64,000 nt of DNA. Source: a virus. Below are positions 5,875 through 31,579 of this stretch, piece by piece (positions within the stretch are counted from its first letter, which is position 1; each line of letters opens with the position of its first letter). The stretch is taken from positions 29,413 through 93,412 of the IMG/VR virus record IMGVR_UViG_3300032214_001346. One strand, given 5' to 3'. The notes under the pieces were generated by a model. The model saw nothing but the letters and a program-made list of their open reading frames with translations, was not told the DNA's origin and ran no database searches. The position numbers and the translations under genes are program-made.

Positions 5875-6396
5875 TTAATTGAGAAGGTTTCTGATTCCTT
5901 GGGAATATCCTTTCCCTTCCCCAAGGTTTTTCAAAATTTTCCATTCCTCTTCTGACAATTTAATTTGACGAGAAGTGCCGTCAATTTTTGGCTTATTGTT
6001 GTGGGAGTTGGGGTTTTTTCCTCTCCCATCAGGTACAGGGATTTTGACCGTTAGGGTTGTTTCACTAGTCCCATTACCATTTGGTTTGTCGTAGTCGTGA
6101 GACTTCTTGACTTCCTTTTTTATCTTTATTCCCGTTGGTACATGAGTATACCAATCAGACTTTTTACAATGATTCCAAAGCTTACCGGGATTTTCGTAAG
6201 CTTCTATCATATAGATATCGTCAGCGATATCTATATCTCCTAAAGCTGTCTCAATGACATCTGGGATATCATTGTAATTTCCAGAAGCTATGCTTTTAGC
6301 ATAAGAATCTGAAAGTTTATTGTAGCTTGTGTAAGCGTAATATGCTGTGTACACAAAAGTGTCATATTTTGTCATATGCTTACAATCCATCCGCAA
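5875..6396 (-). CDS. Hypothetical protein with C-terminal RHH-like segment
   Basis: ORF; SRQIKLSEEEW...GYSQGIRNL. Confidence 0.55.
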   Translation of the reverse strand: MRMDCKHMTKYDTFVYTAYYAYTSYNKLSDSYAKSIASGNYNDIPDVIETALGDIDIADDIYMIEAYENPGKLWNHCKKSDWYTHVPTGIKIKKEVKKSHDYDKPNGNGTSETTLTVKIPVPDGRGKNPNSHNNKPKIDGTSRQIKLSEEEWKILKNLGEGKGYSQGIRNLLN

Positions 6397-7477: not shown

Positions 7478-8047
7478 TTACTGATGTTCAATATTTGTCT
7501 CGCTGTAGTAGCTATTGAGAATTTTAAATAGTTCTAATAGCGCGTCTCCTGATAATTGTTCTTGCCGACTTAAGTGTAAGATTGTCTTAAATGAATTGGT
7601 TTCTAGCTCACTTAAACTGAGGATAACTGGATATTGAGTCTTGAGGATTAAGACATTATTCTTAACATCAAATTTCCAGAATGTAGATACATTAATTAGT
7701 ATTTCATTCTGATTGAATTTGAGGATGTCACGATTAAAAACGACTGCTTCTTTAATGTTGTGACAAACATTAAAGGTGTTGTCTATTTCACCACCCATTA
7801 CTGAATCCAAAACAGAAATTAAGTTTGAGCGGGTAACTTTAACTTTGTGTTTTTGTCCTATCAATCCATAGAGTTCTCTGGATACAGAGCCAACATAACC
7901 ATCGTCGTAACTTAACTTTTCCGCTATTTCTATGTAAGTCTTTCCGTCGCAAAGAAGGCTCACGATGTCTCTCTCTATAGTGCTAAGAGATTTGTGTCGT
8001 ATATTCTCAGAAAGGGCATTAATGTAATTGATATATTTCATGATCAA
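7478..8047 (-). CDS. Regulator with cyanobacterial vMAP/NB-ARC-type N-terminal HTH
   Basis: LSTIERDIV..LCDGKTYIEIAEKLSYDDGYV...KVTRSNL; divergent from nblA. Confidence 0.65.
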   Translation of the reverse strand: MIMKYINYINALSENIRHKSLSTIERDIVSLLCDGKTYIEIAEKLSYDDGYVGSVSRELYGLIGQKHKVKVTRSNLISVLDSVMGGEIDNTFNVCHNIKEAVVFNRDILKFNQNEILINVSTFWKFDVKNNVLILKTQYPVILSLSELETNSFKTILHLSRQEQLSGDALLELFKILNSYYSETNIEHQ

Positions 8048-8217
8048 AGTTGTTAAAAAAGCAACAAAAAAGAGGTTTTTGTTGCTAATGGTGACAAACC
8101 TGTTAACTTTATTCGAGATTTTATTAGCTTAACTTTTATTTATTAAAATGTCAATTATTCAATTGGCAACAATAAAAATATCTGCAATAATAATTAGTAG
8201 TTTCAAGGATTAATATT

Positions 8218-8397
8218 ATGGCTGAATTATCAATTGATCAGCAGTTTCAGTTAGCTGCTTTTGAACTTCAAGTAAAGCAAATGTCGCGGGAACAAGCACA
8301 AGAATTTCTGATTAATTTGTTCAAGCAATATCAAACTCAAAGGGCAGCTTACATTGAACTTCTGGGACATCAGTGGGGCATAAGCTATATCCCATAA
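8218..8397 (+). CDS. nblA: Phycobilisome degradation protein NblA (59 aa, absent from ORF track)
   Basis: Translated by hand: MAELSIDQQFQLAAFELQVKQMSREQAQEFLINLFKQYQTQRAAYIELLGHQWGISYIP. Matches the NblA consensus LS.EQQF...F..QV..MS.EQA..FL..L......Y..LL.HQWG; AAGGA RBS upstream. Confidence 0.93.
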   Translation: MAELSIDQQFQLAAFELQVKQMSREQAQEFLINLFKQYQTQRAAYIELLGHQWGISYIP

Positions 8398-8457
8398 TTG
8401 GTTTTTAGTCCCACTGTTTGCTGTTATATTTTTTGTGGGACTAATTTATGTGTTTAT

Positions 8458-8724
8458 ATGCTTTACGTAATTGAATCTAGTAACAACTTATATAAGATTG
8501 GCATCTCTAATAATCCGATTAAACGACTTAACCAATTGCAAGTAGGTAATGGTGAAAAGTTAAAGATGGTTGCCATGCTGAATGTACAGAATGAAAAAAT
8601 TACTGAGAAAAGAATACACTCAATGCTATGGCAGAATAAAAGTATTTTTGGTAGAAATAATGAATGGTTTAATTTAAATAATGAGCTATTAAATTGGTTA
8701 TTGGAATACTTACAGACTTGTTAA
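8458..8724 (+). CDS. GIY-YIG (T5orf172/Mug113-like) nuclease domain protein
   Basis: LYVI...YKIGISNNP.KRL.QLQ.GN...E..IH...EWF. Confidence 0.8.
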   Translation: MLYVIESSNNLYKIGISNNPIKRLNQLQVGNGEKLKMVAMLNVQNEKITEKRIHSMLWQNKSIFGRNNEWFNLNNELLNWLLEYLQTC

Positions 8725-9558: not shown

Positions 9559-10049
9559 TCGTTAGCCCAAATAAAATTAATCCCAGCGTTTTTGGCGCAT
9601 TGCTCATCTTCTACCCTGTCTCCCACCATTAAAGCATCTTCCAATGGCAATGAACAGCAATCTTCAATGAACTGCATAAGCATACCTGGGGAAGGTTTAC
9701 GATAATTGCGCCCTGGCTTTAAATTAACTACATTTCCGTGTGGATAGCATCTATACCCATTGCTACCGTCAAAAGTAGTACAGAAATTAATACATTGTAG
9801 TTGTGGTAATAATTGCATTGTGTACATTTGTTCTTTGATGCAGCTATTTAATGTCTTTTTACGCGCTTCTACACCTGCTTGGTTAGTCACCCCTACAATA
9901 GTCCAGTCTGAATATCGGGTTATTGTTTCTCCTACCCCAGGTATTAATTCTTGATCGTAAGGGTCGTTAATAAATGTTGCCCCTGATTTAGTTTGCCGTA
10001 CAGTGCCGTCTAAATCTAAGAATAAAATTTTACTCATTGGCTTCTCCAT
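9549..10049 (-). CDS. HAD-superfamily IIIA phosphatase (GmhB/PNKP-like)
   Basis: FLDLDGT, VTNQAG, RKPSPGML, MVGDR..D motifs. Confidence 0.88.
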   Translation of the reverse strand: MEKPMSKILFLDLDGTVRQTKSGATFINDPYDQELIPGVGETITRYSDWTIVGVTNQAGVEARKKTLNSCIKEQMYTMQLLPQLQCINFCTTFDGSNGYRCYPHGNVVNLKPGRNYRKPSPGMLMQFIEDCCSLPLEDALMVGDRVEDEQCAKNAGINFIWANDWR

Positions 10050-27675: not shown

Positions 27676-28288
27676 TTTAAGAAAAGAACTAACACAACAG
27701 ATATCTGTTATTCCTGGCTTAAAGACAAATATTTTTAGAGAACAGATAAATCACTCATTGGATCAGGTTATGCCCGCCCGCCGCGCTTAAAAATGACAAG
27801 AAGCTATAGATAGTAAAGCGTAAATTACATCACTCAACTACAATCAAGTACCTTCATGGCGGAAATAACACCAATTCCTGTAATTCCTGTTTCTCCTATG
27901 AGTCCACTTGCAATTAACCCAGTTCAGGTGTCTTTATTTTAGTAAAGAAAGCCTTGAAAGCCTTATATTCTCGATCCGTTAAAAGTAACGTTGGAGTCGT
28001 TAAAAGTAACGTTGGAGTCGTTAAAAGTAAGGTTGGAGTCGTTAAAAGTAACGTTGGAGTCGTTGAATTTAAGGTTTCATCTATATTATTAAACAATCTT
28101 AATTAACAGTCTTAATTAACAATCTTTAGCTTAAGCGTAAATAAAAAAGCTTCTTTAAGAAAAGAACTAATACAACAGATATCTGTTATTCCTGGCTTAA
28201 AAGTAAATATTTTTAGAGAACAGATAAATCACTCATTGGATCAGGTTATGCCCGCCGCCGCGCTTAAAAATGACAAAAAGCTAATAGA
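27676..28288. repeat. ~135-bp direct repeat (27676-27810 and 28154-28288)
   Basis: TTTAAGAAAAGAACTAA...GATCAGGTTATGCCCGCC...GCTTAAAAATGACAA present twice. Confidence 0.9.
27977..28064. repeat. Four 21-bp iteron-like repeats CGTTAAAAGTAACGTTGGAGT
   Basis: Direct reading; followed by AT-rich CTTAATTAACA repeats. Confidence 0.9.
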
Positions 28289-28395
28289 CTTTGGTTCAGA
28301 ATTTATAAAGCAATTTTAAAGCGTACTTATTGAATAAATAAAAAAATACCCACTAAAGCGTGTTAGTGGGTATCAGGTTGAAACCTACAATGCAA

Positions 28396-28599
28396 CTATA
28401 ACACTGTTGAAACAGCCAAGACATCATTCATGTCTTGTCCATAATATTGAACTTCAGCGGTTCTCCGTCCAAAGCGAATATCCGCGTTTCCGCCGAAGGC
28501 TCTAATTTTCCCTGCGGACATCTTGACGTACACCTGGTTATCGTCCGTTAGGGAAAAATACCCGCAGACTGGTACATCTTTAAATTGTCTAAGCTTCAT
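28396..28599 (-). CDS. Small hypothetical protein
   Basis: AAGGAG RBS, TTGACA-17-TAGACT promoter, terminator after stop. Confidence 0.65.
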   Translation of the reverse strand: MKLRQFKDVPVCGYFSLTDDNQVYVKMSAGKIRAFGGNADIRFGRRTAEVQYYGQDMNDVLAVSTVL

Positions 28600-28703
28600 T
28601 GTTTTGTCTCCTTGTCTCCTGATTTATAAATATAGTCTATCTTATTTTTTGTTTACTGTCAAGTGGTTTTAGAAAATATTTGTTTCGCTTGCTTGCTTGA
28701 ATT

Positions 28704-28811
28704 CTTGCAATTAACCCAGTCCCTCAAGTCCGGTTTCACCACGCTGAAACACAATTTAATACTTTAACTTACACCTTGCAATTAACTCAGTCCCTCAAGG
28801 TCGATTTCACC
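28704..28811 (-). CRISPR. Distal mini-array: two degenerate 37-bp repeats (28704-28740, 28775-28811) and one 34-bp spacer
   Basis: CTTGCAATTAACyCAGTCCCTCAAG....TTTCACC variants of the main repeat. Confidence 0.85.
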
Positions 28812-28941
28812 TTTACCCCTATTATAGCATTATTTCTTATTAGGAAACAATTGCTCAAGTACCCGTCCTACAGTAGTTCCTAACCACTGACCACCGCGTT
28901 TTGAGGGTATGTTTTTATTGTTTAAATAATCTGCGATCTAG

Positions 28942-29181
28942 CTAAAAATCAACTCTACCATCACTGTTTAATTGGAATGTTTCGGCGTAGTCCTTGGCGA
29001 TGAAACTGCTTATTAAGTCTACAGTGGTTACTTCGTTCATGGTTTTGTCGTAATACTGAGCATAATCTGATATGGTTTTATAGGCCACTATTAGGTTTAT
29101 GGCACTAGCTTTTAGTTCCGGGTTGTTCCAATCTGTCTTGTTGATGAACGCCAATTCTTTGCTGATATCCATTAATTCCAT
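28942..29181 (-). CDS. 79-aa hypothetical protein embedded in the CRISPR array
   Basis: ORF with an extended -10 (TGCTATAAT) upstream, inside the duplicated 36-bp unit. Confidence 0.6.
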   Translation of the reverse strand: MELMDISKELAFINKTDWNNPELKASAINLIVAYKTISDYAQYYDKTMNEVTTVDLISSFIAKDYAETFQLNSDGRVDF

Positions 29182-29236
29182 AGCTTTTAAGGGGTAGGTT
29201 TTACCCCTATTATAGCATTATTTCTTATTAGGAAAT

Positions 29237-29637
29237 CTTGCAATTAACCCAGTTTCCCAAGGTCGGCTTCACCAATTAAATAGCACCGGCACTAATGATG
29301 AGATAAGAGTCTTGCAATTAACCCAGTTCCCTAAGGTCGGTTTCACCTTCTGAATATTGAATCTTTGATAGAAGCTAACTTGCAATTAACCCAGTTCCCT
29401 AAGGTCGGTTTCACCAACTCGATGTTTTTTATTCCTGATTTTGAATCAAATCTTGCAATTAACCCAGTTCCCTAAGGTCGGTTTCACCCAAACCGGGAGG
29501 GTTGATGGAATTTAGGTCGACACTTGCAATTAACCCAGTTCCCTAAGGTCGGTTTCACCTTTGAAGCTCAAAAAAAGAGATTAGAGTTGAATTTTCTTGC
29601 CTTGCAATTAACCCAGTTCCCTAAGGTCGGTTTCACC
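29237..29637 (-). CRISPR. CRISPR array: six 37-bp repeats (GGTGAAACCGACCTTAGGGAACTGGGTTAATTGCAAG) and five spacers of 31-41 bp
   Basis: Repeats start at 29237 (3 mismatches), 29311, 29379, 29452, 29523 and 29601, with unique spacers. Orientation inferred from the effector gene and the ATTGCAAG end. Confidence 0.97.
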
Positions 29638-31371
29638 TGCCGTATCCCAGATCGTAAGCTGTGTAAAGGTTTCATCCCCTGATTGCGCGGATCTCTTATT
29701 TTTCTTTGTTCCAGGTTTTTGAGTTTTCGCTGAATTAGCTGAAATGCTTATTGGGTAAGGTGCGCGGGTGCTTGGTAAATTGTCAAGGTTCGGATTGCTT
29801 ACGGTGTCTACCTTTGAGGTTGTTTTCACGGCTTTAGAGGTTTTTACATCCCCCCTTCCGCGCTGAGTTCCCCTTTCGGGGTTTAATTGGGAGGAATATC
29901 CATCCTCCGGTGGTGCTTGCACACCTTCCTGGTGACATCCCGTATTGGAATCAGAGCCAGGCTTTCGGGTTTCCCCATGTTCCCACGCCCAAGCGCGGTA
30001 CACTGCTGATAATTGTTTTTTGCCTTTGAGCAAGATGTTCTTAGCTGCATTAGAATCACGTCCTTCTGTGTGACCACATTCTGTACAGCGGTGAGTTCTT
30101 TGGCTCAATGCTTTCTTTATTTTAGCACCACATTTTGAACAGTCAACCGTAGTGAAATGAGCAGCAACTTTTACAAACTCTCTATCAGTATCTTTACACT
30201 TTGTTTCAATTTTACTGATTAAATCACCCAGTGCTGAATCAGCAAAACTTTTGTTTAACCCAGCTTTACGTTTTGCACCGTTTTGTTCATAGCCATTGCC
30301 GTCCTCACGTTTCTTGGCTTTGGGCTTACGGTTCAGGTTTTGTATCTTTAAGTCTTCCATCACAATCCCAGAATACTCACGCACAACTTTAGTAGATAAC
30401 TTATGGTTAAAAGCGTTACGGCTGCGGCGGATCTTTTCATGGTGTAAAGCTATTTTTTGATAGGTTTTCTTCTGATTACATCCTCCCTTTTGTTGCCTAG
30501 ACGCTTTACGCTGTAACCGTCTTAGCTTTGCTTGTTGTTTCCTAAATAGCTTAGGCGGTTCTATTTCTCTCCCCTGATCTGTGGTGATAATTGATAGTAA
30601 ACCCGGATCAATTCCTACTGCTTTATCAGATTTTGGTAATGGGTCATTGGGGATATCAACGCATACATGAAGATAGTAACCTGATGGTTCTTTAACTATT
30701 CTGGCAGGACCCCATTCTTGCCAGTCATATCTATCAAATAATCCTTTAACTTTAATTTTACCAAGTTTAGGGAACTGGACATAGCCATTATTTGAGCCGG
30801 GTATTTTTTCCGGTTTTAGTTCTTTGGATAAACCCCCAGCATTGAGATTAACAAGTGACTTGATTTTATCATTTCTCCCTTTGAATTTTGGCTTTCTACC
30901 GGGGTGTTTTGGGGTAACGTAAGCTTTCCATGATTTCTTTAAAGAATCAATTACCCCTGCCTTAAATTTAGTGGGAACATCTGCCATAAAGTCGGGAATA
31001 TTGTCACTCCTATAAAATTCACATTGTCCATATTTATCAGGGTTTTCAATATTCAAATGTTGTCTAATTTCACAGTAAGGATGACCGCTTTTAGGTCTGA
31101 TGACACCTGTACCGACTAAGCGGACTTTTTCCCACTTCTCAGTAGACTTACCTTTCTTGTCTTCAGTAACAACCTTTCGCCATTTCCACTGCAAAACTAC
31201 ACCATCAGGAATAATGCGATCGCTTATTTCTTTCTCTCTATAATATTTCTGTCTTCCTGCTAGTTTGAGTGACAGCCCTGTATTCCAAACCCACTTGAGT
31301 TTGTCTAGCCATTGATTAATCGTTTGTACCTGTGCAACCGTGGGGTCAAGTTTAAATTCAAAAGTTTTCAT
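29608..31371 (-). CDS. CRISPR-associated TnpB-like RNA-guided nuclease (compact type V, Cas12f/V-U2-like)
   Basis: N-terminal FKLDPT...WVWN; RuvC-I GIDPG, RuvC-II VMEDL, CxxC..CxxC zinc ribbon, RuvC-III RDSNAAKNI. Adjacent array; no tnpA or cas1/cas2 in window. Confidence 0.9.
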   Translation of the reverse strand: MKTFEFKLDPTVAQVQTINQWLDKLKWVWNTGLSLKLAGRQKYYREKEISDRIIPDGVVLQWKWRKVVTEDKKGKSTEKWEKVRLVGTGVIRPKSGHPYCEIRQHLNIENPDKYGQCEFYRSDNIPDFMADVPTKFKAGVIDSLKKSWKAYVTPKHPGRKPKFKGRNDKIKSLVNLNAGGLSKELKPEKIPGSNNGYVQFPKLGKIKVKGLFDRYDWQEWGPARIVKEPSGYYLHVCVDIPNDPLPKSDKAVGIDPGLLSIITTDQGREIEPPKLFRKQQAKLRRLQRKASRQQKGGCNQKKTYQKIALHHEKIRRSRNAFNHKLSTKVVREYSGIVMEDLKIQNLNRKPKAKKREDGNGYEQNGAKRKAGLNKSFADSALGDLISKIETKCKDTDREFVKVAAHFTTVDCSKCGAKIKKALSQRTHRCTECGHTEGRDSNAAKNILLKGKKQLSAVYRAWAWEHGETRKPGSDSNTGCHQEGVQAPPEDGYSSQLNPERGTQRGRGDVKTSKAVKTTSKVDTVSNPNLDNLPSTRAPYPISISANSAKTQKPGTKKNKRSAQSGDETFTQLTIWDTAGETDLRELG

Positions 31372-31579
31372 GGTAAAATAGATGCGTGGGTATGTTGGAC
31401 CTACTCCTAGTGGTGGATTGATGCTGAGAACATCACCACGCGACTAGGTTTAAATATTATAGCATTTAAACCAAATATATGACATTGAGGCAATTGAAAC
31501 AGAAACTTTACGCTACAATAATAATGTCAAGCTCAGATATATTAAGGGTGCTGTCAGTAATGCTGACAGCTTTATCATT

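Follow-up and report, generated by a model that had tools for sequence, protein, structure and literature searches.

A small gene between two copies of a spacer-length sequence in a phage-borne type V CRISPR array, most likely a scar of gene-capturing recombination

Introduction

Why would a CRISPR array carried by a phage contain a protein-coding gene, and why would that gene be bordered on both sides by the same sequence, one spacer in length? The question is raised by a 64-kb window (the whole stretch of DNA analysed here), which is part of a 93.4-kb viral record that is 94% complete. An earlier note on this DNA offered two readings side by side, namely, cargo captured by recombination between a spacer and its protospacer, or a self-targeting regulatory or addiction circuit analogous to CreTA/CreR. 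The evidence described below indicates that the structure is most likely the scar of a gene-capturing recombination, not a regulatory circuit.

The phage, its effector and its array

The window phage is, by sequence, a relative of Aphanizomenon phage CL131, and positions 29925-31458 share 77.5% DNA identity with the ‘transposase’ gp061 of Aphanizomenon phage vB_AphaS-CL131. The protein encoded here (Table 1) matches the Pfam families OrfB_IS605, Cas12f1-like TNB and HTH_OrfB, and its nearest solved relative is Cas12p, the ‘Cas12 hacker’ (PDB 9JFS, E 2e-29). All three acidic residues of RuvC-I/II/III (D, E, D) are present in the motifs GIDPG, MEDL and RDSNAA, aligned with Cas12p and ISDra2 TnpB, and the zinc ribbon (CxxC...CxxC) aligns as well. 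On these grounds, we assign the protein to type V CRISPR-Cas as a predicted TnpB-derived, Cas12p-like effector of the published class V-U2. An effector of this class has been published from phage CL131, in a paper that suggested a regulatory role for the class and reported the tracrRNA to be absent (PMC6293099). The effector open reading frame (ORF), which has 587 aa and the conserved end TQLT[IL]W, reaches across the tracr-like region described below and into the first repeat in all close relatives, and in CL131 it stops at 466 aa. An 8-bp inverted repeat (GGTTTAAA … TTTAAACC; window 31440-31490) frames the -10 element of the effector promoter and may be an operator.

Beneath the C-terminal tail of the effector lies a tracr-like region, in which an anti-repeat, located approximately 130-145 nt upstream of the first repeat, co-varies with the repeat and is strong in CL131, G008 and L015 (in L001, it is found at ~5900-5960); in the window phage, the match identified by the duplex search is weaker, at ~10 bp with a bulge. 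Given this co-variation among phages of the CL131 type, a tracrRNA is probably encoded at these loci, contrary to the CL131 paper.

The effector adjoins the CRISPR array, which consists of eight 37-nt repeats located downstream of the effector gene on the same strand and read on the minus strand, and the arrays of related phages hold 2-28 repeats with different spacers. Apart from the unit considered here, the spacers of the window array are 31-41 nt long. Repeats R7 and R8 each carry 5 mismatches relative to R1-R5 and represent an older repeat type, and R6 and R7 differ from each other as well. A related phage has a last repeat identical to R8, which indicates that the array’s old end faces away from the effector. 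Furthermore, the guide orientation can be taken to be that of the effector, because the degenerate repeats are distal, the repeat end …GCAAG is conserved and the anti-repeat co-varies; this end, which lies beside the spacer, is the part of the repeat that is conserved between two repeat families.

Table 1. Features of the interrupted array and its surroundings, in window coordinates
Feature	Position	Strand	Basis or remark
Type V effector, TnpB-like, 587 aa	29608..31371	-	Pfam and motif alignment
Effector promoter: ATGTCA, 18 nt, TG-TATAAT	31456..31485	-	sequence; 12-mer AATGCTATAATA common to U
Tracr-like region beneath effector C-terminal tail	29638..29973	-	duplex search; anti-repeat near 29875-29892
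Main array, repeats R1-R5 (37 nt, identical) and spacers	29311..29637	-	repeat search
Repeat R6, 3 mismatches to R1-R5	29237..29273	-	repeat comparison
U copy a, after R6 + 1 nt; carries an extended -10 (29217-29209) and probably drives the 79-aa gene	29200..29235	-	sequence
7-bp hairpin AGGGGTA / TACCCCT over the edge of U copy a and insert	29190..29208	-	sequence
79-aa gene, small three-helix protein	28942..29181	-	relatives start at second ATG (29172)
Insert tail Z, 94 nt, ends CAATTG beside U copy b	28848..28941	-	sequence
U copy b, abuts R7; with flank TTGTTT, 18 nt, TG-TATAAT	28812..28847	-	sequence
Distal mini-array: R7 (28775-28811), 34-nt spacer sp07 (28741-28774), R8	28704..28811	-	repeat comparison
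67-aa gene (28396-28599) with own promoter (28662-28634) and terminator (28374-28345)	28345..28662	-	sequence
Half repeat, old end of the array	27905..27925	-	G004: matching sequence directly after last repeat

In the distal mini-array, spacer sp07 has matches in two related phages, G003 (32/34) and G002 (29/34); these are located ~1.2 kb behind the arrays, not in them, and beside GTT. The sp07 sequence also occurs outside an array in run X3. The pattern suggests a spacer by which one phage targets others, directed at one and the same variable region.

Several further observations concern spacers and repeats of the relatives. At ~9760-9900 of the L016 locus (record G005), just past the main array, the repeats are of a second, diverged type (GTTTCAACTATCC…AGTTGCAAG). 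The match of window spacer 2 in G005 turned out not to be a protospacer, being a related spacer (26/34 identical) in this diverged second array, and was excluded from the comparison of protospacer-adjacent motifs (PAMs). The motif TTAGTGCCGGTG is common, on both strands, to several G005 spacers and window spacer 5, suggesting that one target site has been sampled repeatedly.

Beyond R8, the array appears to continue in an interrupted form. The sequence that matches the half-repeat region directly follows the array in G004, so that the block at 27905-28703 of the window also lies inside the array. Between R8 and the half repeat are located the 67-aa gene and four 21-bp tandem repeats (27977-28081), and we also place there a 135-bp block that is duplicated at 27676-27810. 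The 67-aa gene is 100% identical in L016, where it is found 3 kb from the array and without U. The array of L008 (record G002; 7735-8684 of the locus) is interrupted as well: an ORF of ~209-221 aa starts in a trailer-like 52-nt ‘spacer’, runs through a whole repeat and ends just before a degenerate repeat; beyond that repeat lie another copy of the trailer and a further gene. The trailer end thus gains genes in other ways too, as an ORF running through a repeat in G002 and as the 67-aa block between R8 and the half repeat in the window phage.

Structure of the interrupted unit

In the direction of the effector, the interrupted part of the array reads R6, a single A, U copy a, an 18-nt leader, the 79-aa gene, a 94-nt tail, U copy b, R7, sp07 and R8. 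The earlier note is confirmed in that the 36-nt unit U occurs at 28812-28847 and 29200-29235; these are its only two copies in the 64-kb window, and they enclose a 352-bp insert with a 79-aa ORF (28942..29181) on the minus strand. No further copies with up to 3 mismatches were found in the window, with none expected from 100 shuffles. Copy b begins on the base after R7, with no gap, and copy a ends 1 nt (T, 29236) before R6. The duplicated sequence has the length of one spacer, with its outer edges 0 and 1 nt off the repeat-spacer junctions. Removal of the insert together with one copy of U would leave a spacer of 36-37 nt, within the range of the other spacers, which agrees with the normal spacing that the note had described.

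The arrangement is real. The junction from R7 through U into the insert is crossed by unbranched Logan contigs from two further studies, X5 (28775-29043) and X6 (28766-29014), with 0 differences in each, and these contigs settle this first junction. In run X1, the region is represented by four graph pieces (28300-28841, 28818-28928, 28899-29229 and 29206-29339) of similar depth (18-25); taken alone, this k=31 graph would look the same for one molecule and for a plain array accompanied by a 388-bp circle. With k=31 shorter than U, a plain R6-U-R7 form would not be visible in the Logan contigs, and among these, none crosses the second junction, from the insert through U into R6, as a whole. The exact 79-aa protein is encoded on 5 contigs, the longest of 97.7 kb. 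Because the R7-U-insert junction is present in contigs of three independent studies, the duplication is not an artefact of assembly, the concern that the earlier note had raised against its own reading.

The 79-aa gene and U are both absent from 10 related phage records, including CL131 and one 100% complete 100-kb genome, and the arrangement of a gene between two copies of U is conserved in no relative and is confined to a single lineage. Uninterrupted arrays, which the note had suggested looking for in related phages, do occur in G001, G003 and G005 (with 21, 19 and 28 repeats, respectively), but none of these contains the plain R6-U-R7 form. U was not found as a spacer in the array of any relative, and these relatives may be too distant for such a match.

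The 79-aa protein is one of a family of seven, all of them small and found in metagenomes only. AlphaFold2 predicts three helices (pLDDT 87, from seven sequences), and searches of Pfam, PHROGs, PDB profiles and the ESM Atlas, as well as Foldseek comparison with PDB and BFVD, gave no usable family or fold match. One member, P0005, is a chimera that equals the 79-aa protein encoded here (P0001) over the first 28 residues and is of the P0008 type thereafter, which indicates that the gene family recombines and is mosaic. An anti-defence or exclusion role of the 79-aa protein is a guess only. The G+C content of the insert (39.2%) is close to that of the genome (38.3%), so the donor was probably a similar phage. 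Within the tail of the insert, the stretch 28899-28938 also occurs in a minor variant from run X1, the sequence of which departs from that of the window over the gene. The tRNA-like appearance of the tail was not borne out, with no match from ARAGORN or Rfam.

The unit U as a candidate promoter

Read on the minus strand, both copies of U contain the extended -10 element noticed earlier, TGCTATAAT (29217-29209 and 28829-28821). The perfect TGCTATAAT precedes the first ATG of the ORF by 28 nt and the second ATG by 37 nt, and the 12-mer around it recurs in the promoter of the effector. In the whole genome, TGNTATAAT is found 16 times against 7.4 +/- 2.7 expected, often before genes and including the effector promoter. 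Promoter activity of U is plausible. Copy a likely drives the 79-aa gene, which could also be reached by read-through from the array. Copy b, which also has a -35-like TTG, would likely start an RNA at about the first base of R7, and such a start would likely allow the anti-rival spacer of the distal mini-array, and the genes beyond it, to be expressed in spite of the insert.

The extended -10 element in U and the hairpin spanning the junction of copy a with the insert jointly suggest that U and the gene are natively one unit; the hairpin, in particular, would be hard to explain unless the two had always been neighbours. If U and the gene are natively one unit, the spacer matches the gene’s own promoter.

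These same features could also be read as a portable promoter that was used twice and never was a spacer, with copy a serving a gene located after a terminal R6 and copy b serving the mini-array R7-spacer-R8. R6 is indeed degenerate, as terminal repeats often are, and an RNA start at the first base of R7 could be functional. Yet the edge of U 1 nt from R6 and the spacer length of U would both be left unexplained, and there is no other copy or near-copy of U in the window genome or in the relatives, which makes this explanation unlikely.

Proposed self-targeting

The note had pointed out that the crRNA from R6 would match the second copy of U, and this match indeed extends over 36 of 36 nt. The guide would consist of the single A followed by U, so that copy b is matched in full except for the first base (A in the guide, G in the target). 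The CAATTG flank adjoins copy b as described, but its PAM-like nature is doubtful: the three bases 5' of the target are TTG, or ATT if the register is one of 37 nt, compared to the GTN recognized by Cas12p (10.1101/2025.01.20.633832).

A comparable case was observed in G002, in which the leader-proximal first spacer matches the phage’s own genome over 37/37 nt, ~12 kb downstream of the array and inside a 77-aa ORF, and matches G003 over 36/37 nt. The 5' flank of this self match is TGG, not GTN, and the match appears to be tolerated. The protospacer flanks amount to three cases only, GTT for the inter-phage target and TGG (G002) and TTG (window) for the self matches, which give only a hint that self matches may survive because they lack the motif. 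The guide formed by R6 and copy a matches copy b but would probably not lead to its cutting.

A selected, CreTA/CreR-like circuit, the second of the two readings, would have the R6-U guide and the effector repress the promoter in copy b and thereby make the mini-array and the downstream genes dependent on the effector. The identity of guide and target promoter over 36 nt speaks for such a circuit, the retention of a perfect self-matching first spacer in G002 fits it, and a regulatory role has been suggested for this effector class in the CL131 paper (PMC6293099). However, the match is complete, with no short seed, and the RuvC residues D-E-D are in place, so that a usable PAM would mean self-cleavage; recombination between the two copies of U would then tend to remove the cassette, which is nevertheless found in three studies. 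Moreover, the flank departs both from the GTN of Cas12p and from the GTT of the inter-phage target, and the first base of the guide does not pair with the target. Nor is there conserved cas linkage of the U module, which is absent from all relatives; downstream of it lie the mini-array and the 67-aa gene, and the latter has its own promoter and terminator and occurs without U in L016. We therefore find the circuit improbable.

Equally doubtful is a wider proposal, in which the phage arrays of this family are gene-capture sites where a promoter-aimed spacer drew in a rival’s gene along with its promoter and the guide-promoter pair was then kept because the effector tunes the promoter that feeds the distal anti-rival guide.

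The proposed gene capture and its remaining alternatives

The explanation that we favour, with moderate confidence, is capture of the gene cassette by homologous recombination, with a spacer and its protospacer as the recombining sequences. U is of spacer length, has its edges at the repeat-spacer junctions and appears native to the gene, and the simplest way to account for this is an array that once held a spacer derived from the gene’s promoter. The ancestor of the window phage would have carried an ordinary R6-spacer-R7 unit, with a spacer of 36-37 nt that corresponded to the promoter region of a small gene carried elsewhere, whether by a rival phage or by a close variant of the ancestor itself. 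An exchange involving this spacer and its protospacer, through a single crossover with a circular piece or through gap repair, would then have placed the gene in the array with an identical copy of the spacer on each side. In the gap-repair version, the donor would have contained two copies of the promoter, for example, before two successive genes. Given that the spacers of these arrays match close relatives as well as the phage’s own genome, spacer-sized homology to the DNA of sibling phages is common here. Furthermore, the two copies of U are identical, whereas R6 and R7 differ from R1-R5 and from each other, which suggests that the event was recent relative to the array. The anatomy, the reality of the structure and the absence of the cassette from relatives are observed; from these, we infer the order of events and the enzymes.

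Capture by spacer-protospacer recombination, as put forward in the note, is thus favoured by the position of the edges, the spacer length of U, the promoter-hairpin unit and the relatives that lack the cassette, but a donor was not found. The exact U was sought in viral contigs, its 24-nt core in collections of metagenomes, viruses and genomes, and two stretches of the insert tail in viral contigs, with no match from a donor in any of these. Searches with peptide patterns of the gene family in viral, metagenome and genome collections yielded no donor, comparison of the array with GenBank phages in distant mode returned chance matches only, and comparison with plasmids likewise gave no donor. 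That the cargo was natively contiguous with the protospacer is, accordingly, indirectly supported, through the promoter and the junction hairpin, with no donor locus found.

Three further points weigh against capture. A 36-bp stretch offers little homology for recombination of the RecA type, and RecA, RecT and ERF were not found in the 94%-complete genome. A 388-bp circle would be an odd and unlikely intermediate, so that one must assume a larger cointegrate that subsequently lost an internal part, or else a donor with two promoter copies. Finally, the protospacer is flanked by TTG, or by ATT if 37 nt are counted, whereas a functional spacer would be expected to have GTN beside its target.

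A host Cas1-Cas2 complex integrating off register would produce a similar outcome, if staggered cuts one repeat-length apart at the edges of a spacer received a 352-bp insert and gap filling duplicated the spacer; the size of the duplication, 36 nt compared to a 37-nt repeat, and its edges at the repeat-spacer junctions are consistent with such an event. In that case, however, U would be unrelated to the insert and yet provide a promoter at the right distance and half of the edge hairpin, a coincidence with a chance of ~1e-3 or less. In addition, Cas1 is missing from the phage, and a prespacer of 352 bp is far beyond the normal size, and we regard this origin as very unlikely. Site-specific (att) integration lacks an enzyme of the phage, in that the 94%-complete genome encodes no integrase or recombinase of PF00589 or PF00239, although a host enzyme could still have acted. 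Last, an artefact or chimera of assembly, which might be suspected in a metagenomic contig with a 36-bp repeat that collapses in k=31 graphs, is exceedingly implausible given the unbranched R7-U-insert contigs in two further studies, the even depth in the third and the exact protein on 5 contigs of up to 97.7 kb.

Comparison with known systems

If the capture reading is correct, a spacer would be not a weapon alone but also a landing pad that brings a rival’s gene into the array. Together with the other gains at the trailer, this would make the array end a trading place for small accessory genes in cyanophages of bloom-forming Nostocales. The locus is, moreover, a compact natural test case for a little-studied class of phage effectors, with a tolerated full self match beside an anti-sibling spacer. 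To our knowledge, clear natural scars of spacer-guided recombination are rare, and we know of none in a phage-carried array.

The miniature TnpB-like effector carried by the phage, with its adjacent array and putative tracr-type RNA, resembles Cas12p and the V-U2 system of CL131. Sequence similarity to Cas12p is moderate, though; the repeat ends in CAAG, not AAAC, and the PAM and thioredoxin dependence are features of Cas12p.

Some archaeal viruses carry mini-CRISPR arrays that are employed in interviral conflicts. The likeness lies in a short viral array with a spacer against close relatives (sp07), but the mini-array described here is the cut-off tail of a longer array with its own effector.

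In CreTA and CreR, which are CRISPR-repressed toxin-antitoxin and Cas autorepression systems, respectively, the guide matches its target partly (CreA) and represses it without cutting. As in these systems, a crRNA-like RNA encoded beside the array matches a nearby promoter; here, however, the match is full, the flank is unlikely to be a PAM, there is no known toxin and the arrangement is not conserved.

The closest parallels are found in bacterial arrays that have received foreign DNA. Recombination between a targeting spacer and a phage genome is known in staphylococci (Varble 2019, Nat Microbiol, as cited in 10.1101/2020.10.09.333658), and the likeness is direct: homology limited to a spacer joins foreign DNA to the array, and the expected product is repeat-spacer-cargo-spacer-repeat. 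As summarized in the citing work, that case concerns the laboratory, bacterial arrays and transducing particles (10.1101/2020.10.09.333658), whereas the present one would be a natural scar, fixed in the type V array of a phage, with a cargo of 352 bp and a spacer that corresponds to the promoter of the cargo. Prophage phiAP1.1 of Streptococcus pyogenes integrates into CRISPR repeats by means of an integrase, with an 8-bp att core in the repeat (10.1101/2020.10.09.333658). There, too, foreign DNA resides in an array with its own expressed gene, expression being predicted in our case; in the window phage, by contrast, the duplicated sequence is the spacer and the genome is devoid of an integrase.
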